Assembly (NCBI GenBank): GCA_022072055.1
Contig: JAJVIK010000008.1
Span: forward strand, 296,111-360,110
Source: a bacterium
Lineage (GTDB): Bacteria; Hinthialibacterota; Hinthialibacteria; OLB16
Direction of reading: 5' to 3'
DNA length: 64,000 bases
Made by a program: the position numbers and the translations under genes. The notes under the pieces were generated by a model. The model saw nothing but the letters and a program-made list of their open reading frames with translations, made no database searches and was not told where the DNA came from. Shown here one piece after another: positions 8,669 through 42,913 of the stretch; the first letter of the stretch is position 1; each line of letters starts with the position of its first letter.

Positions 8669-9208
8669 GTGATTAGCGAACGAAATTCCATTCGTCTCAG
8701 GAAACCTGCCCTAAGCGATGGGCCCCGAATCTGGAGGCTGGTCCGGTCCTGCAGGAACATGGACCTGAACTCCTTGTATTCATATCTCCTTCTTTGCAGC
8801 CACTTCCGGAACACCTGTGTCGTGGCGGAGGCCGATTCGGAGATCGTGGGGTTTGTCTCCGCCTATAAACCTCCCAATGAAAGGGGGGTCCTGTTTGTGT
8901 GGCAGATTGTGGTGAGGGAAGAATCCAGGGGGCGGGGGCTGGCCAAGCGGATGCTGGCCCAAATCCTCCGCTCATCCTCCTGCGGGAACATCCGCTATCT
9001 GAAAACAACGGTTTCGCCTGCCAACCAAGCCTCCAAAGCCCTGTTTCTTTCGATGGCCAGAGAGCTGGGAGCGGCTTGCGCCGAGGAGCCGTTGTTTCCC
9101 GCTGACCTTTTCGAAGATCAAGCGCACGAGGAGGAGAACCTGCTGCTCATCGGGCCATTCAACGACCACAAAGCGCGTCGAAAGGAGGGAAAAGATGAGG
9201 GTCCATGA
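8669..9208 (+). CDS. ectA: L-2,4-diaminobutyrate acetyltransferase
   Basis: IRLRKPALSDGPRIWRLVRSCRNMDLNSLYSYLLLCSHFRNTCVVAE...EIVGFVSAYKPP matches EctA. Start assigned to the GTG at 8669, which is preceded by AAAGGA (SD). The ATG at 8570 lies upstream of or inside the predicted promoter. Confidence 0.8.
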   Translation: MISERNSIRLRKPALSDGPRIWRLVRSCRNMDLNSLYSYLLLCSHFRNTCVVAEADSEIVGFVSAYKPPNERGVLFVWQIVVREESRGRGLAKRMLAQILRSSSCGNIRYLKTTVSPANQASKALFLSMARELGAACAEEPLFPADLFEDQAHEEENLLLIGPFNDHKARRKEGKDEGP

Positions 9209-10541
9209 GAGGCTCGAATCGCAGGTGAGAGGATACTGCCGCTCTTTCCCGACGATCTTCACGACGGCAAAGGGCGCTCAGCTCTTTGACTGGAAAGGCC
9301 GTCGCTACATCGACTTCCTCTGCGGGGCGGGTTCTCTGAACTATGGTCACAACAATCCGGAGATTAAAGAGGCTGTCATCGAGTACCTGCTCAGTGATGG
9401 AATCCTCCATGGACTCGATCTCGCCACCGAGGCGAAGGAACGTTTCTTGGATGTCTTCGAGGGGCTGATCCTCAAACCGCGGAACCTCGAATACAAGATT
9501 CAGTTTACGGGTCCCACCGGCGCCAACGCGGTGGAAGCCGCTTTCAAATTGGTGAGGAAGGCGACGGGCCGGAGGAACATCATTTCCTTCACGAACGGTT
9601 TTCACGGCGTGACCCTGGGGGCTCTTGCCGCGACAGGCAATTCTTACTACCGGCGGGCCGCAGCCACGACCCTTGGCGAAACCACATTCATGCCCTATGA
9701 CGGGTACTTCGGTCCGGACTTCAACACACTCGAATACATCCGGAAGGTCCTGACGGACGGCAGCAGCGGGGTCGATCTCCCCGCGGCGTTCATCGTGGAA
9801 ACGGTTCAAGGCGAAGGCGGCCTGAACGCGGCTTCCGCCGGGTGGCTCCGAGGGCTACAAGCCCTGGGAAGGGAATTGGGGATCCTCCTCATCATCGATG
9901 ACATTCAAGCCGGTTGCGGTCGCACGGGAACTTTCTTCAGCTTCGAGGGTTTCGGGATTATTCCGGACATTGTCCTTCTCTCGAAATCGTTAAGCGGGTA
10001 CGGCCTGCCCATGTCGGTGGTTCTGATCAGGCCAGACTTGGACATCTGGGAACCGGGGGAACACAACGGCACATTTCGCGGAAACAACCTCGCCTTTGTT
10101 TCGGCGGCCAAGGCCATCGAAATTTATTGGGGAGACGATTTGTTCTCTCATGAAATCGGGAAGAAGGCGGAAATCCTTTCGGATCGCCTCGCGGAGATCA
10201 TACCCTTCGACACCGAGGCGGAGTTCGAGCCGAGAGGACGGGGTCTTATCCAAGGGATCGAGTGTGCGCCCGCCTCGATTGCAGACCGGGTGAGCCGAGC
10301 GGCCTTTGAACGAGGGTTGATCATCGAGACATCCGGCGCCGACAGCCAGGTTATCAAGTGCCTCCCGCCGCTGACCATCGAGGTTTCAATCTTGACGAGG
10401 GGGCTGGACATACTTGAGGACAGTCTCCAGGCGGTTCTGACGGATGGAAGCGGGAGGCAATTCCACGCTCCACCTCCGGGGCGTCCTCAGAATTCCCGTT
10501 GGGTCAGCGTTCCGACGGCCACAGAGGTGTACAGCCGATGA
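9195..10541 (+). CDS. ectB: diaminobutyrate--2-oxoglutarate transaminase
   Basis: MRVHERLESQVRGYCRSFPTIF...LNYGHNNPEIKEA and a class-III aminotransferase PLP region. Typical EctB N-terminus. Confidence 0.9.
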   Translation: MRVHERLESQVRGYCRSFPTIFTTAKGAQLFDWKGRRYIDFLCGAGSLNYGHNNPEIKEAVIEYLLSDGILHGLDLATEAKERFLDVFEGLILKPRNLEYKIQFTGPTGANAVEAAFKLVRKATGRRNIISFTNGFHGVTLGALAATGNSYYRRAAATTLGETTFMPYDGYFGPDFNTLEYIRKVLTDGSSGVDLPAAFIVETVQGEGGLNAASAGWLRGLQALGRELGILLIIDDIQAGCGRTGTFFSFEGFGIIPDIVLLSKSLSGYGLPMSVVLIRPDLDIWEPGEHNGTFRGNNLAFVSAAKAIEIYWGDDLFSHEIGKKAEILSDRLAEIIPFDTEAEFEPRGRGLIQGIECAPASIADRVSRAAFERGLIIETSGADSQVIKCLPPLTIEVSILTRGLDILEDSLQAVLTDGSGRQFHAPPPGRPQNSRWVSVPTATEVYSR

Positions 10542-14985: not shown

Positions 14986-15975
14986 TCAGCGCCGCCGGTC
15001 CTGGTCGTACAGGAAGAAGTTCTCGACCGTGGAAGGGGGATGTCCGATCAGGACTTGACCTCCTTCGGCGCTTACCAGGAAGGGACACCCTCCGGAGCTG
15101 CGAACCTCCGCGTCTTGGAGATTCAGGACCAGGCGCGACCCAATCCCACAAGAAGGGGGAATTGTAAAGTTCAGCCACCCCAATTGAGCGGCCTCAATTC
15201 CCCGAATTTCCTCATCGCCACAAAGGACAAACGAAACAGTCCCGGATGCTTGGCCAAGCGCAACGCTCCACCCTGAGATTCGCGGTGTCGGAAGGAACGA
15301 CTCGAAGAACAGACCGGCGGGGTTGAAGTGGACCTCGCCGGACACCTCGCCAATCCCCGCCCCCATCGAAACCGAAAGAGGAATCCGGACAGTTCCATTG
15401 GGAAAACCGGAGTCCGAGCCGAGTCCGAGCACCAGCGGCGCCTGCGAGGGGAGTTCAGACCCGACACGGAAAAGCGCGTTGTCCGCGAGCAGCCGGTAAC
15501 GAACGCTATTCTCGTCATACCATCGGGCGAGGTGAAAGCAGATCGGCGTGACCGTCCCCACTCCAGCCTCCAGCTTGGGGCTGAGAGTAACCAGAAGAAT
15601 GACCGCCTCGCCGGGAGCGATCAGACCCTCAACATGGGCCAGAGACGCCGCCAGCGTCCCAACCTCCGGGAAGTCATACGCCAAGAGAAAGGACCCAGTC
15701 ATCGTGGCGGTGCGAACCTCATCCATGGAGAGAATGGTGGGATCGTACTCCAATCTGAAATCCCCCCCGGCGAAACCGTCGCCGTCCGATAACCGGATTT
15801 CGATCACCGTCTGTCCGGGATAGACCGCGGCGCCGTTCGTGGCCTCGACAACCCGGTCCAGGGCGCAAGCCGCGGGTGGGCTTACGGGAACTCCCAAGGG
15901 GGAGAACACGGATTGGAGGACTTGCATGCAGACAGAAAGAGTTATCGGATGTTTCATGGCTCCAGTCGGCTCCAA
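14986..15975 (-). CDS. secreted protein with two cohesin-like beta-sandwich domains
   Basis: Signal-like N-terminus. Two repeats carry AGGDFRLEYDPTIL ... ARWYDENSVRY-type motifs shared with three other ORFs in the locus. Confidence 0.6.
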   Translation of the reverse strand: MEPTGAMKHPITLSVCMQVLQSVFSPLGVPVSPPAACALDRVVEATNGAAVYPGQTVIEIRLSDGDGFAGGDFRLEYDPTILSMDEVRTATMTGSFLLAYDFPEVGTLAASLAHVEGLIAPGEAVILLVTLSPKLEAGVGTVTPICFHLARWYDENSVRYRLLADNALFRVGSELPSQAPLVLGLGSDSGFPNGTVRIPLSVSMGAGIGEVSGEVHFNPAGLFFESFLPTPRISGWSVALGQASGTVSFVLCGDEEIRGIEAAQLGWLNFTIPPSCGIGSRLVLNLQDAEVRSSGGCPFLVSAEGGQVLIGHPPSTVENFFLYDQDRRR

Positions 15976-16022: not shown

Positions 16023-17375
16023 TCACTCCTCTCCCACGCTCTGCCTCCAATACCTGAGAAACTCAAACAGGTCCCGGCTGTCCACCACGCCATCTTTGGT
16101 CAAGTCGGTTTGGAGGAGCGCTCCAATCACTTGGTCGGCGGGGGATTGGCTGGTGGGGGTCACAGTGGGTGAGGGCGTTGGGCTGTCGCTTGGTGAAACT
16201 CCGATGACCACGGGCCAGATGGGAAGCGGGACGAGCGTGGGTTCTCCAATGATCAAGTCTCCCCCGATTTGCGTGGGGTTCGCCTCCACGCTCACCCGTG
16301 TCGGATCCGTGGCGGCGGTGGCTTGAGACAGGTCGGTTGCATCCGGATTCTCCTCGGCGGGATCCTCGGAGGCCGCCTCTCCATCCCCGAGGATCGTCAC
16401 CATTCCATCCTGAGTGACCACCGGGATCGCGCGGCTCATTTCGTCATACATCTTGGCCTCCAAAAATCGAAGGGGCGCAGCGGTCCCTTCGGTCTGAGTG
16501 GAGGAAGCACTCCCCTCGAGGATGAGCAGCGCATCCGGGCCGGGAGGCAGTCCCTCCACGGCGGCCATCGAGATCGAATAGCGGCCCTCTCGCTTCTTCG
16601 AGATCAGAAGAAAGGAGTCCGAGGGGCCAGTCCGTTGCACACTCCTCAAGTCGACCCATGCGGGATCAAAGCCAATTTCAAAGTCGCATCCCGCCACGTT
16701 CACCAGGTCGCTGCACGAAAGCGCGACCTGGAAGCCTTCACCGGGATGAACCTCAGCGGACCCCAGCGCCAAGCGTCGTCCGACCGCGGTCGGAGTGGGG
16801 GTCTGGGTCGTTCGAGCGGTGGGGGTGAGGGTCGCCGGATGTGTCGGGGTCGGGGTTACCGCCGCCTCAGTCGCGGTGGCATCCTCGCGCCAGGTCGGAG
16901 TGGGGGACTCGATGCGGGAAGGCGTTGGGGTCAGGCTCGGCTCGGTCTGTCCCCCTTGGCGATTGGGTTTATCGGCGCCGAGGGACCCGGGATTCCCCGA
17001 TCCCTGGAGGGTGTCCAGGTTCGACCCACGCTTCGGGTCCGCCCGTTCTCCTTCGATCTCCCTGCTTCCTTGGGGAAGCATCCCCTGGCGCGGCGCTTCA
17101 TCCGCGGGGCGTGGATTCAACCATCCGGGAGCCACTCCCACCAGGACCTTTCCGATTGCTCCGATTGCTCCAAGCGCCCTGTCCCATAGAGTCTGAACCC
17201 CCACGGTTGGACCGGCGGCGATCAAGGCGGAGGCCAGGCAAACCCCGAGGGTGATGGCCACCAGCCTAAGGGTCTGTTTGTGAGGCGAAGGGGATTTGGG
17301 TTTCATCTTGCCGCCTCCTGCTTCCAGATTTCCAGGAACCGGATCAGATCCTTTTCGTCCACTTGGCCGCTGCAA
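16023..17375 (-). CDS. signal-anchored protein: Thr/Pro linker + cohesin-like domain + TP linker + C-terminal dockerin-like Ca-loop tail
   Basis: AGCDFEIGFDPAWVDL...YSISMAAVEGL...LRFLEAKMYDE cohesin-like block, and C-terminal DLTKDGVVDSRDLFEFLRYWRQ. The real start is probably the MKPKSPS... Met near 17309. Confidence 0.6.
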   Translation of the reverse strand: MQRPSGRKGSDPVPGNLEAGGGKMKPKSPSPHKQTLRLVAITLGVCLASALIAAGPTVGVQTLWDRALGAIGAIGKVLVGVAPGWLNPRPADEAPRQGMLPQGSREIEGERADPKRGSNLDTLQGSGNPGSLGADKPNRQGGQTEPSLTPTPSRIESPTPTWREDATATEAAVTPTPTHPATLTPTARTTQTPTPTAVGRRLALGSAEVHPGEGFQVALSCSDLVNVAGCDFEIGFDPAWVDLRSVQRTGPSDSFLLISKKREGRYSISMAAVEGLPPGPDALLILEGSASSTQTEGTAAPLRFLEAKMYDEMSRAIPVVTQDGMVTILGDGEAASEDPAEENPDATDLSQATAATDPTRVSVEANPTQIGGDLIIGEPTLVPLPIWPVVIGVSPSDSPTPSPTVTPTSQSPADQVIGALLQTDLTKDGVVDSRDLFEFLRYWRQSVGEE

Positions 17376-18466
17376 TCGAAATCAGCGGGAACGAAGGGGG
17401 TGGGCGAACCGGTCGGGGTGGGGTCGAAACCGGTTGGGGTCGGAGTCGGGTAAGGGGTGGCGCTTGCCGTGGGCTCCGAGGTCGGGGTCGCTGACACCGT
17501 GCCTGTCGGAGTTGCGGTTTCAGGACCAACCGCGACCGTGATCTCTCCGCCCACGCCAGCGGAGGCGAATCCAAAACCCTCGAGGTTTTCGATTCGCACG
17601 CCGGTCAAGGTGATCGGAGAAGCGGTTCCGGGAGTGGCGGACTCCGACACGGCAACCCTCCAATTGCCAAGAAGAAGCGGATCAACCCCCCCGAGCTCGA
17701 CCGGACCTCTGATGTCAAAATGAACTAGTCCATTAAGAGGAAACAGGTCGATTTGCCAGGCGAGCAGGTCGACCGCCGGTTCGAAGCCAACGATTTGGAT
17801 TTGGGTGGGATCAAAAACAAGACCTCCGGAGATGTTCCCGATCGCCTCCGGCATGGAGACCGAGAAGGGGATGGTCGCCTCGTGTCCGGGGGACGCCGTG
17901 GCGGATGAAAGACTGAGTGTCAGGGGGCGTTCCGAAGGGGGAGTCCCCCCCACTCGGAGGAGACCGTTATCCCCGAGAAGCTCGTGGCGGACGCTGGACT
18001 CGTCATACCAGCGCGCCTCGCGGAAGACAATCGGCGAGATTGTCCCTTCGGGAGCATCCACGCCAGCTTGAACCGTGAGGAGAGCGATAGGCGCGGCCCC
18101 CACTCCGGACAGACCTTCGGCAGCGGCCATTGAAATCGAGAAAAGGCCGGATTCCGGTGACCCATGCGCGACCAGGAAGTCTTCGGTGGCTTCGGCGCGG
18201 TCCACATCTTGAATCAGGAGGACCCGGGGATCGAATGAAAGGATGAAATCCCCTCCGGCGAAACCCGCCAGGCTCGAAAGGATCAGGGGAATCTGCACGG
18301 ACTGTCCGGCGGACGCCGCGCCGTTCGCAACCTGGATCACCGCATCCTCCGCCCTGGCGGTCGGCGCGCAAAGCAACAACGAGACAATCCCGAGCAGCAG
18401 CGCCGGGCGCGGGCTGCTCGGGTGTGAAGTGGGCGGTCCGGAGCGGGAAACTTGGGCTGGGCCCAT
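17303..18466 (-). CDS. secreted protein: two cohesin-like domains + TP linker + C-terminal dockerin-like tail
   Basis: AGGDFILSFDPRVL...FSISMAAAEGL...VFREARWYDESSVRHELL, and a C-terminal DFDCSGQVDEKDLIRFLEIWKQ. Confidence 0.6.
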   Translation of the reverse strand: MGPAQVSRSGPPTSHPSSPRPALLLGIVSLLLCAPTARAEDAVIQVANGAASAGQSVQIPLILSSLAGFAGGDFILSFDPRVLLIQDVDRAEATEDFLVAHGSPESGLFSISMAAAEGLSGVGAAPIALLTVQAGVDAPEGTISPIVFREARWYDESSVRHELLGDNGLLRVGGTPPSERPLTLSLSSATASPGHEATIPFSVSMPEAIGNISGGLVFDPTQIQIVGFEPAVDLLAWQIDLFPLNGLVHFDIRGPVELGGVDPLLLGNWRVAVSESATPGTASPITLTGVRIENLEGFGFASAGVGGEITVAVGPETATPTGTVSATPTSEPTASATPYPTPTPTGFDPTPTGSPTPFVPADFDCSGQVDEKDLIRFLEIWKQEAAR

Positions 18467-18563
18467 GTTGGTTCCTTTCGTGCCCCGCTGTGTGAGGTCG
18501 CGGCTGGAGGGAGAGGCCTTGAGCGCTCTCCCTCCAGCCTTCCCAAGCCGGTCCTATGCGCGT

Positions 18564-20219
18564 TCAGCGATTGGAACCGACGGCCTTTCTGAGCATGTAG
18601 ACGGCGTCACCGGAATCGACTCGACCGTCGCCGTTGCAGTCGCCGGAGGCGACCTCTCGAACCCTCAATTGGACTTGTTCTTGGTCGGCGCTGTGACGCA
18701 GGGCGCGGATCGCGTCGCCGGAATCGACTTCACCGTCGCAGACCAGGTCTCCGAGACGGCGACCCCCGGCAACCGTCGCCTGCTCCCTCACCTCGAACCG
18801 GCGCTCTTCTCCCACCGGACCGAGGCCCAGGACCCGACCGTCCTGCCCGAGGGACAGTTCCCGGACTCTCCAGGTGTACTGCCCCAATCCGGGAATCTCG
18901 GTCTCCCAAGTCGCTCCCCTGCAGTGGCGGAAAGCAATCCGGTTTTGGGTGGCATCGCTCACCGACACCAGCGACAGACCTTCCGTTGCGCCTCGATTCC
19001 AGGCGAAGGCAACCGCCGCTTGAGGCCCCGGGAACTCCGTCTGGTTCTCAGCTGAAAGAAGCGTCACCGGATCCCCCATCTCGGGAGGCTCAAGGACTTC
19101 TCCGATCGTGAAATGCCAGGTTTCGGAAAATTCCGTTGGGAGGAGATCCTCCCCATCTTGGATGATGGCTCGGACCTTCCAGCTGTAGCGTTCGTCGAGG
19201 ACCGCTTCGGGAACCACCAGCACATAGCTGGTGGCGTCAGTGAGGATGCTTGTCGGCGGATCCGTAATGCCGTGATGGACCGGGCCCATGGGGTCGCCCC
19301 CCATGGGAGGATCCGCCACCCTGAACTTGATTTCGTAATACACCGCAGTTGGAACTTCGGTCCAACTGAATTCCCCTAAGAGCCCATCCGGGGTTGGGTT
19401 GAGGACAGCCTCATCCGGCGGCGAGATCAATTGGGGCGGTTCCACCGCCGTGGTGACCGGCCCCCAGCAGGCCCCATGGTCTCCGCCATAGTTGTAGTCA
19501 AACTGGATCGGGTCGCACCATTCGCCGGGACCCTCCGCGCCGATCGCGCGCACTCGCAACCGATAGGCGCCCTCCCCGCGATTCGATCCATAACGAGGCC
19601 CCGATCCGACCGCCGTCTGAAATCTCCAGGCCTCACCGCTCACGATTCGGTATTCGGGACCGTTGGAGGTCTCCAGGCAGATTTGGTATTGGAAGGCGCC
19701 GGGCGATCGCCTCCAGCGAAACTCATAGTTGTTGCCCTCAACCAGGTCGTAGCCATCAGCCGGGAACAAGACCTCCGGCTTGCTCGGACCGGGTCCGCCG
19801 GGTGTGATGTCACGGGCTACCGTGAAATACCGGATTTCACTCCACGGTCCGAAGGTGGCATTCTGATGCTTGTGGATGGTGTCCGGATCGGCGTACAGGC
19901 ACCGCACCTCCCAGCCGAAAGTTCCTTCCTCGGAAGTCCCGAAACTCAGGCGATCATGCCGGGCAAAGAGGATGTAGCTTTCAAATTCAAAGGAGGTGGC
20001 GGAAATTCTCACCTCGTAGGCCCATGCGTCCGCCACGGCCTCCCACTTCAGAAACAGCATGCTCGGGCCCGGCCCCAACGCCACATAACCATCCGGCGGA
20101 GAGAGCAAGACCGGCGCGGTTTCATCCGCGATGGCGCGGGTCGGGAGCCAGACCACCATGGCCCAGATTCCGGCGGCCCATGCGATTCCTTTCTTGGCAC
20201 GACTGCTTGCTTTCCACAT
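18564..20219 (-). CDS. secreted protein with about 4 FN3-like repeats and a canonical two-repeat dockerin at the C-terminus
   Basis: Repeats of the form LLSPPDG...W..V..A..YEVRIS. C-terminal GDLVCDGEVDSGDAIRALRHS ... GDCNGDGRVDSGDAVYMLRKAVG has two Ca-loop + helix segments, as in type-I dockerins. Confidence 0.6.
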   Translation of the reverse strand: MWKASSRAKKGIAWAAGIWAMVVWLPTRAIADETAPVLLSPPDGYVALGPGPSMLFLKWEAVADAWAYEVRISATSFEFESYILFARHDRLSFGTSEEGTFGWEVRCLYADPDTIHKHQNATFGPWSEIRYFTVARDITPGGPGPSKPEVLFPADGYDLVEGNNYEFRWRRSPGAFQYQICLETSNGPEYRIVSGEAWRFQTAVGSGPRYGSNRGEGAYRLRVRAIGAEGPGEWCDPIQFDYNYGGDHGACWGPVTTAVEPPQLISPPDEAVLNPTPDGLLGEFSWTEVPTAVYYEIKFRVADPPMGGDPMGPVHHGITDPPTSILTDATSYVLVVPEAVLDERYSWKVRAIIQDGEDLLPTEFSETWHFTIGEVLEPPEMGDPVTLLSAENQTEFPGPQAAVAFAWNRGATEGLSLVSVSDATQNRIAFRHCRGATWETEIPGLGQYTWRVRELSLGQDGRVLGLGPVGEERRFEVREQATVAGGRRLGDLVCDGEVDSGDAIRALRHSADQEQVQLRVREVASGDCNGDGRVDSGDAVYMLRKAVGSNR

Positions 20220-20244: not shown

Positions 20245-21000
20245 TTAGGCCGCCGTATCCTTGCCGCCTATGCCCGAAAGCGGCATGGGAATGGTTCTTA
20301 AGTCCACTTCAACCTCGCTTCCATCCACTCGGTACGCCCTCGCCTCTCGGATTGAGAGCGTGGGTGTTTCTCCTTCGCTTTGTGTTCGAACCGGGATCTC
20401 CAGGATCGGCGCGAGCCCGCTCATTGGGACACCCTGTCCCGCCGCCATGGACACTCGGATCATTCCGTCGCCGACCTTGCTTTCCATCAGGAACCCGCGG
20501 TTGACCTCACCGAGCTTGACCGGATCGGGACTGAGGGTCCTCATGTCATAGACAAGAACCAGATCAAGCGCCGCGATCTCCTCTTTGGCCTCCGCGGCGA
20601 TCCCAAAACCGGTGATGGGCGCAAGGACCGGTGGGGTTTGAAGCCGGACAATTCCAAGGATCAGCAGTGTGGCGCAAACACCCGCGGCGAAGGCCATCCG
20701 CGGTGGACTGGCGAACAATCCGCCTAGCGTGAGCCGCTTCCCGGGATCCCTCGATCCCTTGGTCAAGTCCTCTCGGACCAGGGTCCCGCGGATATCCCGC
20801 AGCAGGGTCTTGGGGGGCGGGACATGCCGGAAGCTTGTCACCAGATTCGATGTACGCCGCATCTCCTGGTACTCCTTCCGGCAGGAAGGACAGATCTCGA
20901 GATGACCGTTCAGCCAGACCTTCTCTTCCTCGGCCAGCTCGTCATCCACCGCCGCCGACACCAGGTCGAGGTCGCATTCCGACGGATTCTTCGTGTGCAT
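20245..21000 (-). CDS. anti-sigma factor (zf-HC2, single TM) whose extracytoplasmic domain is cohesin-like
   Basis: N-terminal C-x22-H-x3-C-x2-C (ECDLDLV...NGHLEICPSC) and a TM segment (AFAAGVCATLLILGIV). The C-terminal part, LVLVYDMRTL...GMIRVSMAAGQGVP...LSIREARAYRVDGSE, aligns with the cohesin-like domains of the four downstream proteins. Confidence 0.7.
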   Translation of the reverse strand: MHTKNPSECDLDLVSAAVDDELAEEEKVWLNGHLEICPSCRKEYQEMRRTSNLVTSFRHVPPPKTLLRDIRGTLVREDLTKGSRDPGKRLTLGGLFASPPRMAFAAGVCATLLILGIVRLQTPPVLAPITGFGIAAEAKEEIAALDLVLVYDMRTLSPDPVKLGEVNRGFLMESKVGDGMIRVSMAAGQGVPMSGLAPILEIPVRTQSEGETPTLSIREARAYRVDGSEVEVDLRTIPMPLSGIGGKDTAA

Positions 21001-21035: not shown

Positions 21036-21614
21036 CTACAGGATCTCCGCCAACGGACTCAGTTGCTTTCGCAACGCCTGACGGGCGCGTCGCAGACGAC
21101 TGCGGACAGTCTCCAACGGGATTTGCTCCAACTCGGCAATTTCGGCGTAGGAAAGACCCTCGATGTCGCGCAACACCACAGGCGTGCGATAGATGGGATC
21201 CAGGTTGGCCAAAGCCTGTTCCACCTGTTCCACGGTTTCTCTCTCCTCCAAGGCGTCGCGCGGGGACACGACTGTTTCCTCGGGAACGCTAAGTTCGATC
21301 TCGGACCAATCGCTCTCTTCATCGAGAGCGGACCTCCCGGAGCGCGTCTTGTATTTCCTATGATCGAAATGCAGGTTTGTGAGGATTCTTCGGAGCCAAG
21401 CGTGGATGGTTGCTCCATTTCGGCAGCTTGCATTGGACGAAATCGCGCGTAGGGCGGTGGATTGGAGGAGGTCTCGGGCTTCTTCTTCCGATCCGGTGAG
21501 CCGGAAGGCCAGGTTGTAGAGGGGGGGAGCGTGCCGCTCAAAAAGGTCCCCAAAAGCCTGGACATCACCTTTTCTCCATTTTTCCCAAAGAATTTGATCC
21601 ACTTCCGCGCCCAT
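21036..21614 (-). CDS. ECF (sigma-70 family group IV) RNA polymerase sigma factor
   Basis: Region 2 (FERHAPPLYNLAFRLTG), region 4 (LRDIEGLSYAEIAELEQIPLETVRSRLRRARQAL). Immediately upstream of the anti-sigma gene. Confidence 0.85.
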   Translation of the reverse strand: MGAEVDQILWEKWRKGDVQAFGDLFERHAPPLYNLAFRLTGSEEEARDLLQSTALRAISSNASCRNGATIHAWLRRILTNLHFDHRKYKTRSGRSALDEESDWSEIELSVPEETVVSPRDALEERETVEQVEQALANLDPIYRTPVVLRDIEGLSYAEIAELEQIPLETVRSRLRRARQALRKQLSPLAEIL

Positions 21615-27676: not shown

Positions 27677-29866
27677 CTATCGAATCAGATTCACCAGTTC
27701 CTGCAACACCTGGTCCCCGGTGGTGATGACCCGCGCGTTGGCCTGGAAGGCGCGCTGAGCAAGGATCAGGCTCACAAACTCCTCGGAGATATCCACGTTG
27801 GAGAGTTCCAGTTCGCTGGAGGCGATGTCTCCCCGCGCGAGCGTTCCTGGAGTCCCGAGCACCGGGTCGCCCGAGTTGCTGGACTGAACGAAGAGGTTAT
27901 CGCCCCTTCGCAGCAAGCCCCCCTCGTTGGCGAAACTGGCAAGCAGGATTTGGGCGAGGGTCCGCGTGGTGCCGTTCGAGAACACCCCGGTGATGGTTCC
28001 ATCCGGCCCGATGTTGATGGTTTCCAGTCGCCCCACCGGGCTGCCGTCCTGCGCCAGGATCGCGGCGCTGGTGGCGGAGGCGTTCTGGGTCACATCCGTG
28101 AAGTCGAACTCGATGGTGAGCGAATCCACGCCGCCGTTGGCGGGATCGGTCCCATCCGGGTCGAACTGTATCACCGGGTTGCCCGTGAGGATGTTGCCGT
28201 TGTCATCGGTTCCGTAGTTGTCGAAGTTTCCATTGGCCAGGAACACCAGCCGCCCGGTCGCGGCGGTCGGCGGGCTATCGTCCGAGTGCGGCACGATAAC
28301 CTGGTAGTTCCAGGAGTTGAGCAGGGCGTTGGCGGTGTGGAAGGTGTTCGTGCCGGTGATGCCTCCGGCGGTGACCGAAAACCCATCGGTTGTGGAGGAA
28401 AGTCCGAAGTCACGCTCGTTGAACAGACGGGTGATCGCTCCGGAAGCGCTGGCCGTCCCGGCGTTGACTCCATCGTCGTCGGTGTGAATCCGCACATTGG
28501 TGAGCGCGGCCGTGGGGGAGCTGATCCGGAAGGAGCCATCGGGGAGGAGCGACACGGTGATGTCCGTGGCGCCGGCAATGGTGTTGAGCTGGGTTTCGAG
28601 GTTGGCGCGGAGGTCCTCGAGTGTGGTGTTCGCGCCGACCGCGGTGACCAGGGTGTCGGTGGCGGTGGTGGTGGCGCCGATGGTGGAGCCGGCGGCGATT
28701 ACGATACTCGTGGTTCCGGCGGTGACCCCAAGCGAACGTCCCTCACTGTCAAACAGAGAGGTGAGCAGGTCCGTGGCTTCGCCCGGGACCCTGCGGGTGT
28801 CACGCGCAAAGGTGGTCACCACGGTCCGAGCGTTGCCTTGGGAATCGTACACCTCGGTGGAACTGGTGGCGTCCGCCTGACGGAACACCCGGGTGGTGGT
28901 GCCGGTGTTGGCGGTCACATCGATGTCCCCATCCAATTCGCCATCGCTGAAGATTCGGCGAATGGCGGTTTTCTCACCCCCGTTGATGTCCACGGCCGTA
29001 ACCTGCAGGTCGGTGAGGGTTTCGGCGCCCGCCTCAATTCGAAGGGCGCCCGTGGAATCGACGACCACATCCAGGGTGGTGCTTCCAGTAAGGCTCCGGA
29101 GGGCGTCACGCAGGCTAGCGGCCAGATCGCCGAGCGATGTGGATTGGGAGATCGTGAGCACATCGGTCGAACTGAACGTCACGGGAACCCCCGGAGGAAC
29201 CGTGTTGTATGTTCCGCCCGAGATGCGGATCGTGTCGCCCGCGTTCAGGCCGAGTGGCTGTCCCTGGTCATCAAACAGGGTGGCCAGGGTGTTCAAAGAG
29301 CTAGCCCCCGAGGGTTGGGCGTTCGTGCTCAGGTTCCCGCCCAACGTCGCGGTCTGGGTGGGGATGGCATCCGACAGGCTGTTGAAGTCAATCTGGATCG
29401 CGCTCGGCGGTAGGGTCGTGTCGATTTCGCCCTGACTGTTGGCGACCTGGCCGAGCAGGCGGAAACCGTTCCCGGGGCGTGTGATGAACCCTTCCTCATC
29501 CAACCCGAAGTTGCCCGCGCGGGTGAAGAAGGTTCCGCCCGCTCCATCGCTGAGGGCGAAGAATCCGCCGCCGCGAATGGCGAGATCGAGTAACCGCCCG
29601 GTCTGTTGGGGGCTTCCCTGTGTGAAGACCGTGTCGATCGCGTCGGTCCTCACCCCCAGGCCGATCTGTCGTGGGTTAATGCCGCCACGACCGCCGGTGG
29701 CGCCGGCCGCGCCCGAAAGCGTCTGGCTGAACAGGTCCGAAAAAGTCAGCCGGGCCCGACGATATCCGGTGGTGTTCACATTGGCGATGTTGTTACCGAT
29801 CGTGTCGATGGCGTTTGCCTGTCCGCGCAGACCGGAGATGCCTGAGTACAAGGACCTGATTGTCAT
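27677..29866 (-). CDS. flgE: flagellar hook protein FlgE (unusually long, 729 aa)
   Basis: N-terminus MTIRSLYSGISGLRGQANAIDTIGNNIANVNTTGYRRARLTFSDLF and C-terminus ELSNVDISEEFVSLILAQRAFQANARVITTGDQVLQELVNL are the conserved Flg rod/hook terminal segments. Confidence 0.85.
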   Translation of the reverse strand: MTIRSLYSGISGLRGQANAIDTIGNNIANVNTTGYRRARLTFSDLFSQTLSGAAGATGGRGGINPRQIGLGVRTDAIDTVFTQGSPQQTGRLLDLAIRGGGFFALSDGAGGTFFTRAGNFGLDEEGFITRPGNGFRLLGQVANSQGEIDTTLPPSAIQIDFNSLSDAIPTQTATLGGNLSTNAQPSGASSLNTLATLFDDQGQPLGLNAGDTIRISGGTYNTVPPGVPVTFSSTDVLTISQSTSLGDLAASLRDALRSLTGSTTLDVVVDSTGALRIEAGAETLTDLQVTAVDINGGEKTAIRRIFSDGELDGDIDVTANTGTTTRVFRQADATSSTEVYDSQGNARTVVTTFARDTRRVPGEATDLLTSLFDSEGRSLGVTAGTTSIVIAAGSTIGATTTATDTLVTAVGANTTLEDLRANLETQLNTIAGATDITVSLLPDGSFRISSPTAALTNVRIHTDDDGVNAGTASASGAITRLFNERDFGLSSTTDGFSVTAGGITGTNTFHTANALLNSWNYQVIVPHSDDSPPTAATGRLVFLANGNFDNYGTDDNGNILTGNPVIQFDPDGTDPANGGVDSLTIEFDFTDVTQNASATSAAILAQDGSPVGRLETINIGPDGTITGVFSNGTTRTLAQILLASFANEGGLLRRGDNLFVQSSNSGDPVLGTPGTLARGDIASSELELSNVDISEEFVSLILAQRAFQANARVITTGDQVLQELVNLIR

Positions 29867-29925
29867 TGAAATGCTCCTCCTTCTATCGTTTCATCCCATT
29901 TCTGGAAGCTTCACTCGCTCGAATT

Positions 29926-30663
29926 TCACCCGTTGCCCCGGACCGCGAGCACGCTCGCGAGTTCCACGGAGGTGGATCCGACAGAGATCAGGGTGGTCTG
30001 GCCTCGGAAATCGATCCCGGTGACAGTGCCCACCAGGCTCGTGTCCAAAGCGGTCGATTGCTCCCCTGAGATGGCTTGAACTTCGACCCTGGCGGTCCCG
30101 GGTGGGAGCGGGTTGCCGTCACCATCCTCCTGCGGAACGTCGACATACACACGCCCGCCCTCGACTCGAACTCCTTCGGGGGGATCGGCGGGATTGAAGG
30201 TGGTCTCGAAGATGGTCTGACCCGATTCGCCCTTGAGGCGAAGCGTGATCTGCTCGGCGCCCCCATCCGGGAGATCGAACACAATCTGTTCGTCGCCCGC
30301 GCCCCCGACCTGGACCGTGTCGGACTCCACCTCAACCTCCTTCCCGATCAGCCCCACCGCCGTTGCGTTGATGTTGGTCTGCTGAAACGCGAGGCTCGCC
30401 GCGAGCAGATCGGCGATTTCCGAGAGCTCGCCCAGGCCCTGCATGCTGTCCTCGATCTCCCGGAGCTCATCCAGCGAGCTGAATGAGGTCAGCTGCTGGA
30501 CGAATTCCTCGTTGGTCAGCGGTTCGAGAGGGTCCTGGTTCTGAAGTTGGGCCACCAGGAGACGCAGAAATCCCTCTTGGTCGATGGTGGAAGAAGGGGT
30601 CCGCGTGGTTTCGGTGGGGGTGGTCCCGCCCGGGACACTGAAGATTGGGTTGACTGTCGGCAT
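29926..30663 (-). CDS. flgD: flagellar hook assembly/capping protein FlgD
   Basis: FLRLLVAQLQNQDPLEP motif and a C-terminal FlgD Ig-like region. Confidence 0.8.
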   Translation of the reverse strand: MPTVNPIFSVPGGTTPTETTRTPSSTIDQEGFLRLLVAQLQNQDPLEPLTNEEFVQQLTSFSSLDELREIEDSMQGLGELSEIADLLAASLAFQQTNINATAVGLIGKEVEVESDTVQVGGAGDEQIVFDLPDGGAEQITLRLKGESGQTIFETTFNPADPPEGVRVEGGRVYVDVPQEDGDGNPLPPGTARVEVQAISGEQSTALDTSLVGTVTGIDFRGQTTLISVGSTSVELASVLAVRGNG

Positions 30664-30698
30664 GGCGTTCTCCTCTCAGCTCAGGGGGCGCAGGTTAC

Positions 30699-32999
30699 TC
30701 AAGCGTATCGGTCCCAGCGCGCCCGGTTTCGCTCCTCTTGGGATGGGTGCTCTCGTTGATTCGGATTCCGCGAACCCCGCTCCTGGTTCGGTCCCTCGGG
30801 ACTTGAGTCGGCCTGTCTACTCCAGGCGTCCCGCGCCGCTCCCTGGCGGCTTGTGTCGGGGAATGTTTCAGAGCCTGTCGAGCGCACCACCACTTGCTCC
30901 ACCCGAAGCCCGGCGTCTGCGAGGATGGTTTGGAGCTGGGAGACGTGGCGGCTGAGCGCCTCGCGGGTGGTTTCCACGCTGGCGCGGAATTCGGCGGTCA
31001 GCCCATTCTGGGTTTGCGTAACCCTCAGATGGACTTCGCCCAGGTTTTCCGGAACCAGACGGATGCGGATTTCGGAGGCTCCTCCTTGTGTTTGAACTCG
31101 CGCGGCGTGGATGACCTGATCGAGGATCCGCGCTTCGCGGACTCGGGTCGCTTGCGATTCCGCCCGGCCTTGAGTCGAGACCGCCTCGGAGTCGACGACA
31201 CGAAGTTCCACCGTGGTGGACACAGGCGCCGTAGCCCCTTCGCGAATTGGCGCGTGGGCGCCTCGATCCGGGTTGCCTGCTGATTCGGGAGCCGCATGCC
31301 GGTTGACACTCGTGGCGCCCGCGAGAACGGATGTATTCTGATTTCTTGAACTGCCGGGATCGCCCTGGCTCTCCCTCACAGCCGATTCGAGGGATTCGGG
31401 GGCCGCGGATTCGGGAGGCGGCGAGGGCTGAGGCTTGGCGAGTCCCTCCGAACGCGGGATGGGAAGGATCGTGGGTTCAGCTTCGGAGTTTGTGAGCGAA
31501 GGGTTGAGGTTCGGGCGTGACGATGTGGAGGGAGCCTGCTCCTCCGTGGAGCCAACCGAATCCACGACCAGCCGTATATCCGCGGGAGGAGCCGAATGAA
31601 CCGACGGGACAGTTGTTGGAGTGGCGGAACCCGGCGGCGCCCCGATTGGACCCCGGTGGACTAAGTCCGCCGCGGGCGCGAGTGAGGCAATCCGAGGAAC
31701 GCCCACATCGGGAGGGACTGAACCCACCGGCTCTGAGTAGGTTCCCAAACGGGATGAGGTGGTCCCCGTGGGAAGCGGTTCGAACCCCTCGGCGCTTGCT
31801 GTTGAGGCGGTCGCGCGCGCCACCACCGCATGGACCTGAACCGGGAGCGGCCGCGTGGATGGCCGGTTGACTCGAATGCTTTCAAGGGATCCCGCGAGAG
31901 CGCGGAGCTGCTCGGCGATGTCCCCCACAACCAGGCGCACTGAAACCTGTGTGTTCCCTTCGGCGCCTTGGCGGGGCGTCGCCGTCGCCTGGTCCGCGGA
32001 TTCCAGCGGCGTCTCAGACCTCGGAATCCATGTCTCGGAGAGAGCCGCCGGAAGCGGAACGCGGATGATTGGAGCATCCCCGGGTTTGAGCGGGTTCGAC
32101 GGAACGGGCTGCGCGCCTCCTATGCCAACCTCCGCCAAGAGGTCACGGATTCCGGGTGTGACGATCTCCTCGGTTTCAGTCGGATCGAGGAAAGGGACTG
32201 TTGGATTTGCCAGGATCGCGGTATCCGAGTCCAGCGGCGTTGTGTTGATGGGGTTGAAGAACAGGTCGAGTCCCCCGGTGGTGCCGGTTGACTGAGGGAG
32301 CGTTTCGTCGATGGGTTCCGGAAGCGGAGCTCGTAGCACCAGGATCGGTTCGGGAGCTGCGGGCGCAATGGGGCTTCGTTGAGTGAACGAAAACTCCGAA
32401 ACCACACGCGCGACCGGATGGTCCGAGGGAATATTGGGCTCCGACGGGATTTCGGAAGTGGCGATGAGCGCTGTCTCCCCCTCGGAGGGCTGTGTGACTT
32501 CAAGTCGTGGAGCCGAGGGATTGGCGGGGAGCTGGGGAACAATCAGGTATGCGACAACCTCACCCTCCGCGGGTTCCGTTGAGGGTGTGGGTTCGCCCTT
32601 CAGAAGGTCCTCGGTTTCTTCCGGGGAAAGGGGGCGAAGTTGGACCTCTTCGAGGAGGCCGGTTAAGGCATCCGCGGTGGCCGCGAGCCTGCGCGCTCGA
32701 GGAGCGGAGAAATCCTCAAGGACCGCGGGCTGATCCGCCCGCGGGAGCTGGAGGAACGCGGCAAAGCCTGCCCCGGTGGGAAGGTTCTGCAGTTCAGGCA
32801 ACCTGCCGAAGGCGGTTGGTCTGGGAATTCTCGACCCCGCCAGCCCATCCTGGAGAGACCCGGAATTGAAGGGGATTTGCGCCAATCCGACGCCCATAAG
32901 CGCTCTCTTTCGCCGCGCGGAGTCCCTGCTCCTTGGCGCGGGGTGAAGTTCTCTTGGGCAAGGCGCGTGCCAGGGGATCCCCGTTCGGGCTTTGATCAA
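30699..32999 (-). CDS. fliK: flagellar hook-length control protein FliK (766 aa, Pro/Ser-rich N-terminal region)
   Basis: The C-terminal domain IRIRLVPENLGEVHLRVTQTQNGLTAEFRASVETTREALSRHVSQLQTILADAGLRVEQ matches the Flg_hook/FliK C-terminal domain. Gene order fliK-flgD-flgE. Confidence 0.7.
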   Translation of the reverse strand: MIKARTGIPWHAPCPRELHPAPRSRDSARRKRALMGVGLAQIPFNSGSLQDGLAGSRIPRPTAFGRLPELQNLPTGAGFAAFLQLPRADQPAVLEDFSAPRARRLAATADALTGLLEEVQLRPLSPEETEDLLKGEPTPSTEPAEGEVVAYLIVPQLPANPSAPRLEVTQPSEGETALIATSEIPSEPNIPSDHPVARVVSEFSFTQRSPIAPAAPEPILVLRAPLPEPIDETLPQSTGTTGGLDLFFNPINTTPLDSDTAILANPTVPFLDPTETEEIVTPGIRDLLAEVGIGGAQPVPSNPLKPGDAPIIRVPLPAALSETWIPRSETPLESADQATATPRQGAEGNTQVSVRLVVGDIAEQLRALAGSLESIRVNRPSTRPLPVQVHAVVARATASTASAEGFEPLPTGTTSSRLGTYSEPVGSVPPDVGVPRIASLAPAADLVHRGPIGAPPGSATPTTVPSVHSAPPADIRLVVDSVGSTEEQAPSTSSRPNLNPSLTNSEAEPTILPIPRSEGLAKPQPSPPPESAAPESLESAVRESQGDPGSSRNQNTSVLAGATSVNRHAAPESAGNPDRGAHAPIREGATAPVSTTVELRVVDSEAVSTQGRAESQATRVREARILDQVIHAARVQTQGGASEIRIRLVPENLGEVHLRVTQTQNGLTAEFRASVETTREALSRHVSQLQTILADAGLRVEQVVVRSTGSETFPDTSRQGAARDAWSRQADSSPEGPNQERGSRNPNQREHPSQEERNRARWDRYA

Positions 33000-35271: not shown

Positions 35272-36246
35272 ATGACTGAACACACCCATTTGATTCGTCT
35301 CAGGGACTCGCGCGAAAGCGTGGCGGTCTACGGGAACCTCGACGAAAACCTTCGTTTGATTGAAGAGGAGTTCGAGGCTCACCTGATCGCGCGCGGGGAG
35401 CAGCTTCGCATCCAGGGCGGAGTGGAGCAGGTGGACTTGGTGCGCCAAGTGATCGAGGGCTTGCGCGGCATCGCGCAGACCCGCGCGGTGGTCGATTTGC
35501 AGAATGTCCGCGACCTGATCCGAATGGTGAAGGCCAAGAGCCCTGTCCCGGTGCGCGAGGTGCTGGAGGACTCGATTCAGGTCAACGGACAGCACCGCAA
35601 GATCAAGCCGAAAACAGTCGGCCAGAAGCGCTATATCGACGCCATCCGTCAAAACGACATCGTGTTCGGGATCGGACCGGCGGGGACCGGAAAGACTTAC
35701 CTTGCGATGGCCTGCGCGGTGCACGCCCTGATTAACCGCAAGGTCAAGCGGATTGTGCTCGCGCGCCCGGCGGTCGAGGCGGGGGAATCGCTCGGCTTTC
35801 TGCCGGGAGACCTTTACGAGAAGGTGAACCCGTACCTGCGCCCGCTGTATGACGCTCTCTATGACATGATGGAGTTCGAGAAGGTCAACCGTCTCATGCA
35901 GCAGGGTCAGATCGAGGTCGCGCCGCTGGCGTTCATGCGCGGCAGGACCCTCAACGATTCCTTTGTGGTGTTGGATGAGGCGCAGAACACCACGCGCGAG
36001 CAGATGAAGATGTTTCTCACCCGCCTGGGGTATGACTCCAAGGCGGTGGTTACCGGGGATGTGACTCAGATCGATCTCCCGCAGCAGAAGGTGAGCGGCC
36101 TGATCGACGCGATCGGGGTGCTCAAGGGAATCCGCGGCCTGGAGATGGTCTGGCTGGGCCGTGGGGATGTGGTCCGGCACCCGCTGGTTCAGGAGATCAT
36201 CCGAGCCTATGAAGAGGCGGATTCGCCGGAGGCGGCCAAGCTATGA
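35272..36246 (+). CDS. phoH: PhoH-family ATPase
   Basis: GPAGTGKTYLAMA Walker A. Full-length PhoH/YbeZ similarity. Confidence 0.9.
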   Translation: MTEHTHLIRLRDSRESVAVYGNLDENLRLIEEEFEAHLIARGEQLRIQGGVEQVDLVRQVIEGLRGIAQTRAVVDLQNVRDLIRMVKAKSPVPVREVLEDSIQVNGQHRKIKPKTVGQKRYIDAIRQNDIVFGIGPAGTGKTYLAMACAVHALINRKVKRIVLARPAVEAGESLGFLPGDLYEKVNPYLRPLYDALYDMMEFEKVNRLMQQGQIEVAPLAFMRGRTLNDSFVVLDEAQNTTREQMKMFLTRLGYDSKAVVTGDVTQIDLPQQKVSGLIDAIGVLKGIRGLEMVWLGRGDVVRHPLVQEIIRAYEEADSPEAAKL

Positions 36247-41107: not shown

Positions 41108-42913
41108 TTATCTGGCGCACACGATCCGGAACCCAACATACCCGCTGGGCGGAGTTTTCGGTGTGACCGCCACGCGCCAATCGCAGCGCAGGGACTCCAA
41201 TCGGTCCTTCCAGGTTCCTCCGCGATAGACGAGTTCCTTGCGAGGCCCCGGCTCGCACCACTCCCCGACATTCCCGGCCAGATCGTGGATGCCGAGCTGA
41301 TTCGGTTTGAAACTTCCAACTTCGAAGGTTCCGCCGTGGTCTCCGCCGCCGAAATTGGCGTAAGCGGCCGCTTCCTCCGGAGATTCCCCCCAAACATACC
41401 GCCCCGAACCCCCGGCCCGGCAGGCGGCCTCCCATTCTTCTTCCGTGGGCAGGCGAACTTCTTTCCCGAAATGGGATGAGAGCCTTCGGCAGAACTCCCG
41501 GCAGTCCTCCAGCGAGACATTCTCAACCGGGTAGCGCGCCCCCTTGATCTTCGAGGGGTCGAGCGGGAGGTCGTGTTTCGAGACCGGAAGCCCCGCGACC
41601 ACGCTCCCCCACTCCGATTGAGTGATCTCATATTTCCCGATCCGAATCGGACTTCCCGGCAGTTCGACCAACTCAATCCGTTCGCCGCTGGGAAGCGGGA
41701 TGCCCGCGGTGGTCGTGGCCGGGGCGGGCGGCTCCTCAATGAGCGGAGGAGGAGGAGGAAGCGCGGGAAGAGGTGGGGAAACCAGCACATTGCCCAGATC
41801 CAGGACCTGCCCCTCTACAATCTTGATCTCGCCGCGCACTTCCGAGGGGGGTAGGTTCGGCGCCTGAATCCTCAGGCCAGGATAGGTTCCCACCACGAGC
41901 TTGAGCGAGAACGCCCCTTGGATGTCGGCCTCGCCGGCGCGGTCCGTGCCAATCGGGCCCACGCGCGCGCCCCGCAGCGGCGCTTGGGTCGCGGTATCCA
42001 GCAGGATGCCTTTGAGCTCGCCCTCCGGGAGTCGACGGGGCACCAGGATGAACTCCCCGCCCCGGTGGTCGGTCTCAAAGATCGCGCCCATCTGCGGGGA
42101 CTGGGAGGCGTTGCGGGCGATGTCCACCTTCACTTGGTTGAAAACCTGCGAGGAATCCGTCCAACCGCGAGGCGGGTTCTCCAGGGCCTTCAGGAAGTAG
42201 TGCGCGAAGACACTGTGCCCCTCGAACCCTTCGGCGGTCACCGGTTCATCCCCACCGGAGGCCAGGACCAATCGCGATTTCTTCTTGAGGGCCTCGGTCA
42301 CATAGCGGTCCAGTTCCCCCTCGGCCGGCTCCACGGTAACCCCCTTTTCGGCGAACAGACGCCCGGAGAAGCAGGAGTCGCAGACCACCCAGATGTGCCG
42401 CGCCTTCATCGCGCGAACATAGCGCTGGATGCGGTCGCTGGCGATGAAATCAACCTCGCTCTTTCCTTCCACCGGAACCCAGAAAGCATCCCCGGTGAGG
42501 TCATCCTTGGTCCCATGCCCCGAGAAATAGATGAGCAGACTGTTCTCTTCGGTCAGGTTGGAGGCCAGGTCTCGGAGGGAGTCAATGATCGCCTGCTGGG
42601 TCGCGCTTTCATCATAGAGCTCGATGATCCGCTCGAAGCCATACTTGTCGCGGAGCAACGCGGCCAGGGAGCGGGAGTCATGAACGCAATTGGAAAGCGG
42701 GGTGTGGAACCGGTACTTGTCGATCCCGATGACCAAGGCCCATTGACGGCCCACGCCGCCGGTCCATTCCGGCGCGCCGGGAGCCTCCACCGCGACCCCC
42801 TTGAGGTCCTCCGCCGCGGACGGAATACAAAGCCCCAACGCAATGAGTAAACCGAGGAGCTGGGTCATGGCCGGTCTCGTGCATATTCTTTCCCTTTGAT
42901 GGGGCCCTCGCAA
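41108..42913 (-). CDS. secreted caspase-like (peptidase C14) domain fused to a C-terminal FGE-sulfatase/SUMF1-like domain
   Basis: Signal peptide. Caspase His/Cys dyad context (LLIYFSGHG ... VVCDSCFSG). C-terminal IRIGKYEITQSEW...RLPTEEEWEAACRAGG...GNVGEWCEP...YRGGTW...GFRIVCAR are FGE-family hallmarks. Confidence 0.75.
   Translation of the reverse strand: MRGPHQRERICTRPAMTQLLGLLIALGLCIPSAAEDLKGVAVEAPGAPEWTGGVGRQWALVIGIDKYRFHTPLSNCVHDSRSLAALLRDKYGFERIIELYDESATQQAIIDSLRDLASNLTEENSLLIYFSGHGTKDDLTGDAFWVPVEGKSEVDFIASDRIQRYVRAMKARHIWVVCDSCFSGRLFAEKGVTVEPAEGELDRYVTEALKKKSRLVLASGGDEPVTAEGFEGHSVFAHYFLKALENPPRGWTDSSQVFNQVKVDIARNASQSPQMGAIFETDHRGGEFILVPRRLPEGELKGILLDTATQAPLRGARVGPIGTDRAGEADIQGAFSLKLVVGTYPGLRIQAPNLPPSEVRGEIKIVEGQVLDLGNVLVSPPLPALPPPPPLIEEPPAPATTTAGIPLPSGERIELVELPGSPIRIGKYEITQSEWGSVVAGLPVSKHDLPLDPSKIKGARYPVENVSLEDCREFCRRLSSHFGKEVRLPTEEEWEAACRAGGSGRYVWGESPEEAAAYANFGGGDHGGTFEVGSFKPNQLGIHDLAGNVGEWCEPGPRKELVYRGGTWKDRLESLRCDWRVAVTPKTPPSGYVGFRIVCAR

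Follow-up and report, generated by a model that had tools for sequence, protein, structure and literature searches.

Single dockerin repeats as tails of cohesin-bearing and other secreted proteins in a genome labelled Candidatus Omnitrophica

The group-2 dockerins of Ruminococcus flavefaciens (RfDoc2), which possess one Ca2+ loop, bind the cohesin ScaE (Duarte et al. 2025, PMC12270676), and their crystal structure (9GVB) shows two copies antiparallel on one cohesin, mimicking a full dockerin (PMC12270676). The same paper in the Journal of Biological Chemistry (JBC) regards these modules as the only known functional dockerins that are truncated by nature; it also reports that engineered halves of dockerins from three species still bind, that many halves lose affinity, and that a cohesin can carry twice the load when the dockerin is halved (PMC12270676). 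The present analysis concerns a window of 64,000 nucleotides, i.e., the whole stretch of DNA that was analysed (contig JAJVIK010000008.1 of assembly GCA_022072055.1, positions 296,111 to 360,110; 61 % G+C), the proteins of which carry the NCBI label 'Candidatus Omnitrophica bacterium' (P0001 being HUU16_05105, on a 369-kb contig). Three secreted proteins encoded therein end in a short dockerin-like segment (tails A, B and C), two of them being cohesin-bearing products of one operon. These tails are probably naturally truncated single-repeat dockerins that dock to cohesin domains, rather than export or sorting signals.

The motif D-x4-G-x-V-D-x2-D-L-x3-L-x2-W-x-Q, searched as a degenerate DNA pattern, occurs at exactly three places in the window (mean of 0.00 matches in 100 dinucleotide-preserving shuffles of the window): (i) DFDCSGQVDEKDLIRFLEIWKQ of tail A (17318-17383, minus strand) in open reading frame (ORF) 17303-18466, (ii) DLTKDGVVDSRDLFEFLRYWRQ of tail B (16041-16106, minus strand) in ORF 16023-17375, and (iii) DINRNGRVDEEDLLLLLKYWFQ of tail C (56273-56338, plus strand) in ORF 52400-56350. 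A hidden Markov model (HMM) of the tail, run on the six-frame translation of the window, retrieved only the same three tails (50-62 bits), and the next-best scores (6-8 bits) belong to the two dockerin segments of an ORF of 551 amino acids. The complete tails are PADFDCSGQVDEKDLIRFLEIWKQEAAR (tail A, 17306-17389, minus strand; a Ca2+ loop plus one helix, recovered by HMM and DNA pattern), QTDLTKDGVVDSRDLFEFLRYWRQSVGEE (tail B, 16026-16112, minus strand) and RADINRNGRVDEEDLLLLLKYWFQLVD (tail C, 56267-56347, plus strand). All three are preceded by a Pro/Thr-rich linker, and the stop codon follows 3-5 residues after the tail. A first-pass annotation of this DNA had reported a nearly identical tail behind a Thr/Pro linker on three secreted proteins, and both pattern and HMM bear out all three as quoted; tails A and B indeed reside in the stretch to which it had assigned them (16023-20219), whereas tail C is located outside of it. 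Some orthologues lack the final Q of the motif. In the 3 kb obtained beyond one window edge no tails were found.

Each tail represents one dockerin repeat, i.e., one helix behind a Ca2+ loop of the EF-hand type, and with that half of the usual module. The 12-residue loop with Asp or Asn at positions 1, 3, 5, 9 and 12 is present in the aligned tails, the exception being Thr at position 3 of tail B. Pfam Dockerin_1 covers the isolated tail B with its positions 2-23 of 57 (15.4 bits) and the isolated tail C with its positions 31-55 of 57 (22.4 bits), both below the Pfam cut-off of 22.9 bits, and the Pfam scan gave no Dockerin_1 match for the isolated tail A. In case of the full-length tail-bearing proteins, nothing or 16.4 bits was obtained, so that this gathering threshold was not reached. 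The NCBIfam model of GC-type dockerins (NF041540) responds to tail B only (15.2 bits versus a cut-off of 29; positions 37-64 of 67). A second dockerin segment was found by tail HMM and alignment neither in the window tails nor in 11 orthologues of the tail-A protein (387 amino acids). With half of the profile matched and no second segment present, Dockerin_1 does not explain the tails as ordinary duplicated dockerins. The half-dockerin (single-repeat) interpretation put forward in the first-pass annotation is in agreement with these results, with the dockerin structures retrieved as best matches and with the occurrence of cohesins in the same proteins and operon.

A profile built from 12 tails and compared with all solved structures retrieved first the dockerins of cohesin-dockerin complexes (5lxv_B, 4fl4_A, 3ul4_B, 1ohz_B; E 1e-6 to 2e-5), matching these top structures on both of their segments; calmodulin and troponin C were reached only at E >= 0.2. 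Tail C alone, searched against the PDB with phmmer, retrieved the type I dockerins of Clostridium thermocellum (3ul4_B at 9e-8, 4fl4_A and 1ohz_B), and its alignment to the C. thermocellum dockerin spans loop and helix to the chain end. No chain of 9GVB and no group-2 or group-4 chain was among the best PDB matches of the tails. An exhaustive tail-profile search in 1.84 billion representative proteins yielded 8747 matches at E <= 1e-3. Among the best 150 of these 8747, the top matches possess 2-6 segments that are 25-33 residues apart, corresponding to the normal paired dockerin layout, and the single-stretch matches are exclusively orthologues of tail A. The tail is therefore homologous to a dockerin segment, and its single state is exceptional. 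Whether segments were even or odd in number at a given score threshold varied too noisily in this search to be of use. For the 387-amino-acid protein, AlphaFold2 (AF2) predicts a helix at residues 371-386 directly after the loop (predicted local distance difference test, pLDDT, of 71-81 in the tail); an entering helix before the loop is not predicted.

The 11 orthologues of the 387-amino-acid protein were obtained from NCBI, ENA, JGI and Logan assemblies and share down to 35 % identity; each of them possesses a linker of variable length and one C-terminal segment. Residues D362, F363, V369, D373, L374, F377, L378, W381 and E384 are invariant in the 11 tail-A orthologues. Mean pairwise identity in this family amounts to 63.9 % for the tail, 56.2 % for cohesin 1, 40.5 % for cohesin 2 and 37.1 % for the linker. 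Tail A is the best-conserved region of its protein, and these comparisons reveal that the tail is under strong purifying selection. Tail B has conserved orthologues in the related loci L001, L122, L126 and L128, and tail C is kept in P0161, the only homologue found for its carrier protein of 1316 amino acids (41 % identity, same architecture). A search of metagenomes for further related loci yielded no more than two short ones.

Tails A and B constitute two distinct types, both of which are conserved. Each type keeps its own charged residues in the different lineages, namely E18 and E23 in case of tail A and E15 and R/K18 in case of tail B. In type I dockerins, positions 10, 11, 17, 18 and 22 are the classic positions of cohesin recognition. 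The type-specific residues of tails A and B are located at or beside these positions and thus count in favour of cohesin binding.

The module also occurs in other contexts. In L001, a protein of 388 amino acids with eight CxxCH haem motifs (9095-10261, minus strand) carries a single segment, ADLDGNGIVDSEDLILMMDQWK, directly after the signal peptide, i.e., at the N-terminus of the mature protein, and the tail-B orthologue of L126 continues for 21 further residues after the tail. A further unrelated cargo with a Pro/Thr linker and a single tail, DINQDGEVNADDLLILLNQWRIK, is encoded in L126 next to the operon (8938-9765, minus strand). The strictly C-terminal placement assumed in the first-pass annotation does not hold in view of the cytochrome and the extended tail B; together with the L126 cargo, they point to a portable module that is usually terminal and is not read from the C-terminus.

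Searching the degenerate tail pattern over genome contigs resulted in at least 119 stretches, mostly from Planctomycetota; the stretches listed are mostly ordinary two-segment dockerins, the first segment of which ends in 'WGQ'. The tail segment is thus a generic dockerin unit, and true singles are rare in this genome-contig scan. Single segments in Planctomycetota were observed at the C-terminus and bracketed by Cys (C-x-G-D...W-x-Q-x-C) in L065 and L070, and at the N-terminus, between the signal peptide and IPT-like repeats, in L033 and L075. Contigs of Sumerlaeota and of one Planctomycetota metagenome-assembled genome (MAG) encode dockerins with one intact Ca2+ loop, two helices and a replaced second loop, as in ...VDFQDFVALLENWGQEYMGYFMDFGAFMALLENWG (L034 1504-1569 and 4276-4341; L066 239-304; L108; L021, L022, L037 and L071), which corresponds to the loop-helix-loop-helix form reported for the group-2 dockerins of R. 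flavefaciens.

The tails resemble RfDoc2 in being naturally truncated C-terminal dockerins with a single Ca2+ loop, and one RfDoc2 member is likewise attached to a cohesin-like module. They differ from RfDoc2 in the following respects: (i) RfDoc2 modules comprise ~45 residues in a loop-helix-loop-helix arrangement with the extra helix 4 of group-4 dockerins, whereas the tails comprise ~25 residues with a loop and one helix, and only 3-5 residues separate this single helix from the stop in the window tails, (ii) RfDoc2 modules carry Gly-Arg at positions 10/11 and derive from group-4 dockerins, while the tails vary at these two positions and look like dockerin segments containing W, which the genome scan retrieved mostly from Planctomycetota, and (iii) RfDoc2 is cellulosomal and belongs to a Gram-positive rumen bacterium, in contrast to the non-cellulosomal tails of a genome labelled Candidatus Omnitrophica, which come in two types from coupled genes.

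Canonical type I dockerins (PF00404; 1OHZ and 3UL4 of C. thermocellum) have in common with the tails the loop with D/N at positions 1, 3, 5, 9 and 12 followed by a helix, and the C-terminal location after a Pro/Thr linker. However, the tails contain only one of the two segments and no connecting helix, and they score below the Pfam threshold. The GC-type (NF041540) and two-segment 'LLxxWG' dockerins contain a nearly identical segment (PADF[DN]GDGxVDxxDLxxLLxxW), but possess two segments, often bracketed by Cys, where the tails have one. These dockerins, mostly of Planctomycetota, are probably the evolutionary source of the tails. The tails would act in the manner of Dockerin_1 and group-2 modules, but belong neither to Dockerin_1 with its two segments nor to group-2 with its loop-helix-loop-helix arrangement and Gly-Arg. 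They would constitute a second, independent and even shorter series of naturally truncated dockerins, far from cellulose degradation.

Cohesin-dockerin systems outside of cellulosomes were reportedly described by Peer et al. in 2009. One non-cellulosomal example stems from Cloacimonadota (PMC8542988). As in such systems, the modules of the window occur outside cellulose degraders and in proteins without carbohydrate-active enzymes; different from them, they form one compact and conserved operon under an extracytoplasmic function (ECF) sigma/anti-sigma pair, with a cohesin-like domain on the anti-sigma factor and with two of three dockerins being half-size.

This operon comprises six genes on the minus strand, in the order of transcription: an ECF sigma factor (192 amino acids, 21036-21614; Pfam Sigma70_r2, Sigma70_r4_2 and Sigma70_ECF), an anti-sigma factor (251 amino acids, 20245-21000), the double-dockerin protein of 551 amino acids (18564-20219), the tail-A cohesin dyad (387 amino acids, 17303-18466), the membrane-anchored tail-B cohesin (427 amino acids, 16023-17306) and a tail-less cohesin dyad (329 amino acids, 14986-15975). 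The operon is conserved in at least four diverged lineages. L001, L122 and L126 contain the full set of six genes like the window, and the downstream part is also present in L128; the sigma factor gene is the first gene in L001, L122 and L126 as well, and in L001 the tail-less dyad sits earlier in the operon. Six cohesin-like modules are encoded in every operon copy. In the window (17303-17306), L001 (6449-6452), L122 (9615-9618) and L128 (1988-1991), the tail-B start codon shares nucleotides with the tail-A stop codon in the sequence ATGA; in L126 the corresponding overlap reads TAATG, at 6159. Due to this overlap in all five loci, the A and B genes are regarded as translationally coupled.

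The tail-A protein is composed of a signal peptide, cohesin 1 (17951-18346), cohesin 2 (17531-17929), a Pro/Thr linker and the single segment. Pfam Cohesin (PF00963) scores 35.1 bits (cut-off 24.1), and the AF2 model displays two beta-sandwiches (pLDDT > 90) and a disordered linker at residues 316-355. Foldseek relates this model to the cohesin dyad 3l8q and to single cohesins at a template modelling (TM) score of 0.8 and a root-mean-square deviation (rmsd) of 2.2-2.6 A. In case of the tail-B protein, the ORF of 450 amino acids (16023-17375) likely starts at the ATG at 17306, giving 427 amino acids with an N-terminal membrane anchor or signal (hydrophobic peak at residues 15-29), a long linker, one cohesin (16392-16787), a further linker and the single segment. 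Pfam Cohesin scores 22.4 bits for the 450-amino-acid ORF, i.e., below the cut-off of 24.1, and hhalign relates this cohesin to cohesin 1 of the A family with a probability of 99.5 % (E 4e-22). The three carriers had been taken as unrelated cargoes; this does not apply to the 387- and 450-amino-acid products, which share a homologous cohesin domain.

The tail-C protein (1316 amino acids, 52400-56350, plus strand) consists of a signal peptide, a large domain without known family, a Pro/Thr linker and the single segment. The tail-less dyad and the tail-A protein are paralogues (hhalign probability of 100 % at E 2e-45, with 37 % identity across 283 columns), and the tail-less dyad reaches 26.0 bits with Pfam Cohesin (cut-off 24.1). 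Linker and tail are absent from it in every lineage, and no degenerate tail was found in another frame downstream of it in the window. Its C-terminus displays a short conserved aromatic motif, VENFFLYD, VGNWRLYD, VENCFLLE, LVNSWVDY or LVNSWEEY (window 14986-15030, minus strand; genes L122 11168-12139, L126 7457-8413, L001 4329-5333 and L128 2-877). A distant relative, P0012 (L123 10001-13762), contains three tandem cohesins and a C-terminal Cys-rich domain of ~150 residues, a nearly identical copy of which is found in the next gene.

The 551-amino-acid protein has a signal-like hydrophobic N-terminal stretch and ends in a dockerin at about 18567-18758, matched by Dockerin_1 at residues 490-541 with 22.8 bits (cut-off 22.9). 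Two segments are present, as had been anticipated for this fourth protein in the initial inspection, and both are nearly invariant in L001, L122 and L126. The helices of this dockerin (AIRALRHS, AVYMLRKAVG) do not contain the Trp of the single tails, and the Trp-less form suggests a specificity class separate from that of the tails. About four repeats of a module of ~100 residues without Pfam family (P-x-L-x-S-P-P-D-G ... W-x-x-V-x-G-A-x-x-Y-E-[VI]) were also recognized in this protein.

The anti-sigma factor contains zf-HC2 (Pfam), matches an NCBIfam anti-sigma model and possesses one transmembrane helix at about residues 101-121 (hydrophobic peak at residue 104). Its outer domain (residues 142-224; window 20329-20577) is homologous to cohesin 1 of the cohesin-dyad family according to hhalign (probability 91.6 %, E 8e-7, 34 % identity). 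The AF2 model of the anti-sigma factor, computed from two sequences, is of low confidence (mean pLDDT 45) and all-beta after the helix, and a homologue search for the anti-sigma factor returned only one relative. The literature searched contained no case of a cohesin serving as the sensor of an anti-sigma factor. The C-terminus of the anti-sigma factor is conserved as GGKDTAA (window, P0163 and L126), RKDTTA (L122) and LNTTA (L001); the orthologous genes are at 1795-2550 in L001, 5970-6734 in L122 and 2468-3220 in L126.

In the proposed mechanism, the 12-residue Ca2+ loop (ligands at positions 1, 3, 5, 9 and 12) and one amphipathic helix would be displayed on the flexible Pro/Thr linker of a Sec-exported protein. 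The hydrophobic face of the helix (L13, F/L16, L17 and W20) could not be buried by the helix on its own. Since a lone amphipathic helix cannot form a dockerin core, a partner surface would be needed, on which the tail may fold in the presence of Ca2+. The tails would accordingly serve as Ca2+-dependent minimal dockerins for the cohesins of the operon. Most likely, two antiparallel tails on one cohesin face would mimic a full dockerin, as in the group-2 crystal of R. flavefaciens. One cohesin may serve as the common platform of tails A and B, and the cohesin-bearing proteins would thereby be joined into an envelope-associated assembly. We infer binding, partner identity and stoichiometry by analogy.

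Several observations weigh against such docking: positions 10/11 of the tails are variable (E-K, S-R, E-E, Q-T and others), tail B fails the PROSITE EF-hand pattern due to Thr at loop position 3, and neither the tail-C protein nor the L126 cargo adjoins cohesin genes. Moreover, the tails offer one helix in ~25 residues as compared to two helices in ~45 residues of the only proven natural single-repeat dockerin, and most artificial half-dockerins lost affinity or aggregated (PMC12270676). If the tails bind as proposed, they would (i) put the minimum size of a dockerin at ~25 residues, (ii) provide new orthogonal parts for designer scaffolds, and (iii) indicate a role of cohesin-dockerin pairs in envelope assembly, and possibly in sigma-factor signalling, in uncultured Omnitrophota. 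One may further speculate, even if this appears improbable, that equal amounts of A and B from the coupled genes complete a split dockerin on a cohesin face, with the outer domain of the anti-sigma factor as one candidate, and that its engagement reports the assembly state to the ECF sigma factor. In such a circuit, a cohesin would for the first time be used in signalling, and a dockerin would for the first time be heteromeric.

EF-hands are normally paired, and isolated EF-hand peptides such as those of troponin C site III dimerise with Ca2+. The tails could therefore also act independently of cohesins, two of them (A with B, or like with like) forming a Ca2+-dependent bundle of two EF-hands that cross-links the carriers. 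The exposed hydrophobic helix face, the two conserved tail types from translationally coupled genes and the 39 contacts between the two dockerin copies in 9GVB would fit such a pairing module. It is nevertheless rather unlikely, since the tails are far closer to dockerins than to other EF-hands, the six cohesin-like modules per operon copy would be left with only one dockerin partner, and a coupled partner gene is lacking for three other tail-bearing proteins, namely the tail-C protein, the L126 cargo and the cytochrome.

A generic Ca2+-binding EF-hand, stabilising or regulating its carrier without a specific protein partner (e.g., by Ca2+-dependent folding outside the cell), is suggested by tails A and C, both of which fit the PROSITE EF-hand loop pattern and match Pfam EF-hand weakly (E 0.005-0.1, 12-17 bits versus cut-offs near 25). 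However, a disordered linker of 40 residues parts the tail from the folded domains, so that the tail cannot stabilise them directly. Helix residues are invariant as well, not those of the loop alone, and type-specific helix residues are conserved, making a role of this kind quite improbable.

The terminal position in 19 of the 20 collected instances, the preceding Pro/Thr linker and the presence on several unrelated secreted cargoes are features which the tails share with C-terminal sorting or anchoring signals read by a dedicated machine, e.g., PEP-CTERM with exosortase, LPXTG or the C-terminal domain of the type IX secretion system (T9SS). On the other hand, no NCBIfam sorting-signal family was matched at E <= 10. 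The tails have neither the transmembrane helix plus basic tail nor the beta-sandwich C-terminal domain of these signals: hydrophobic segments and basic clusters are absent from the last 45 residues (15-residue Kyte-Doolittle maximum of 0.07-0.65, as compared to > 2.2 for true membrane segments of the operon), and the tails are acidic with a net charge of -1 to -6. Furthermore, the tail is homologous to a known binding module, can be N-terminal as on the multi-haem cytochrome of L001, and ends 21 residues before the stop in L126. The new sorting or anchoring tag considered in the first-pass annotation is therefore very improbable, and docking to cohesins is retained as the preferred reading. 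That the tails are functionless remnants of decaying full dockerins, or artefacts of assembly or frameshift, is hardly credible despite the sporadic single or half-degenerate segments among Planctomycetota dockerins, since the same architecture recurs in independent NCBI, ENA, JGI and Logan assemblies, no other part of the protein is as well conserved as the tail, and the upstream linker varies in length with no trace of a second segment.

Other genes of the window encode the flagellar hook protein FlgE together with the hook-length protein FliK (27677-32999, minus strand), a caspase (Peptidase_C14) fused to an FGE-sulfatase domain (41108-42913, minus strand), three DUF7133/HEAT/cytochrome c proteins (42983-49523, minus strand) and a 7TM-HD receptor (36243-38567, plus strand).

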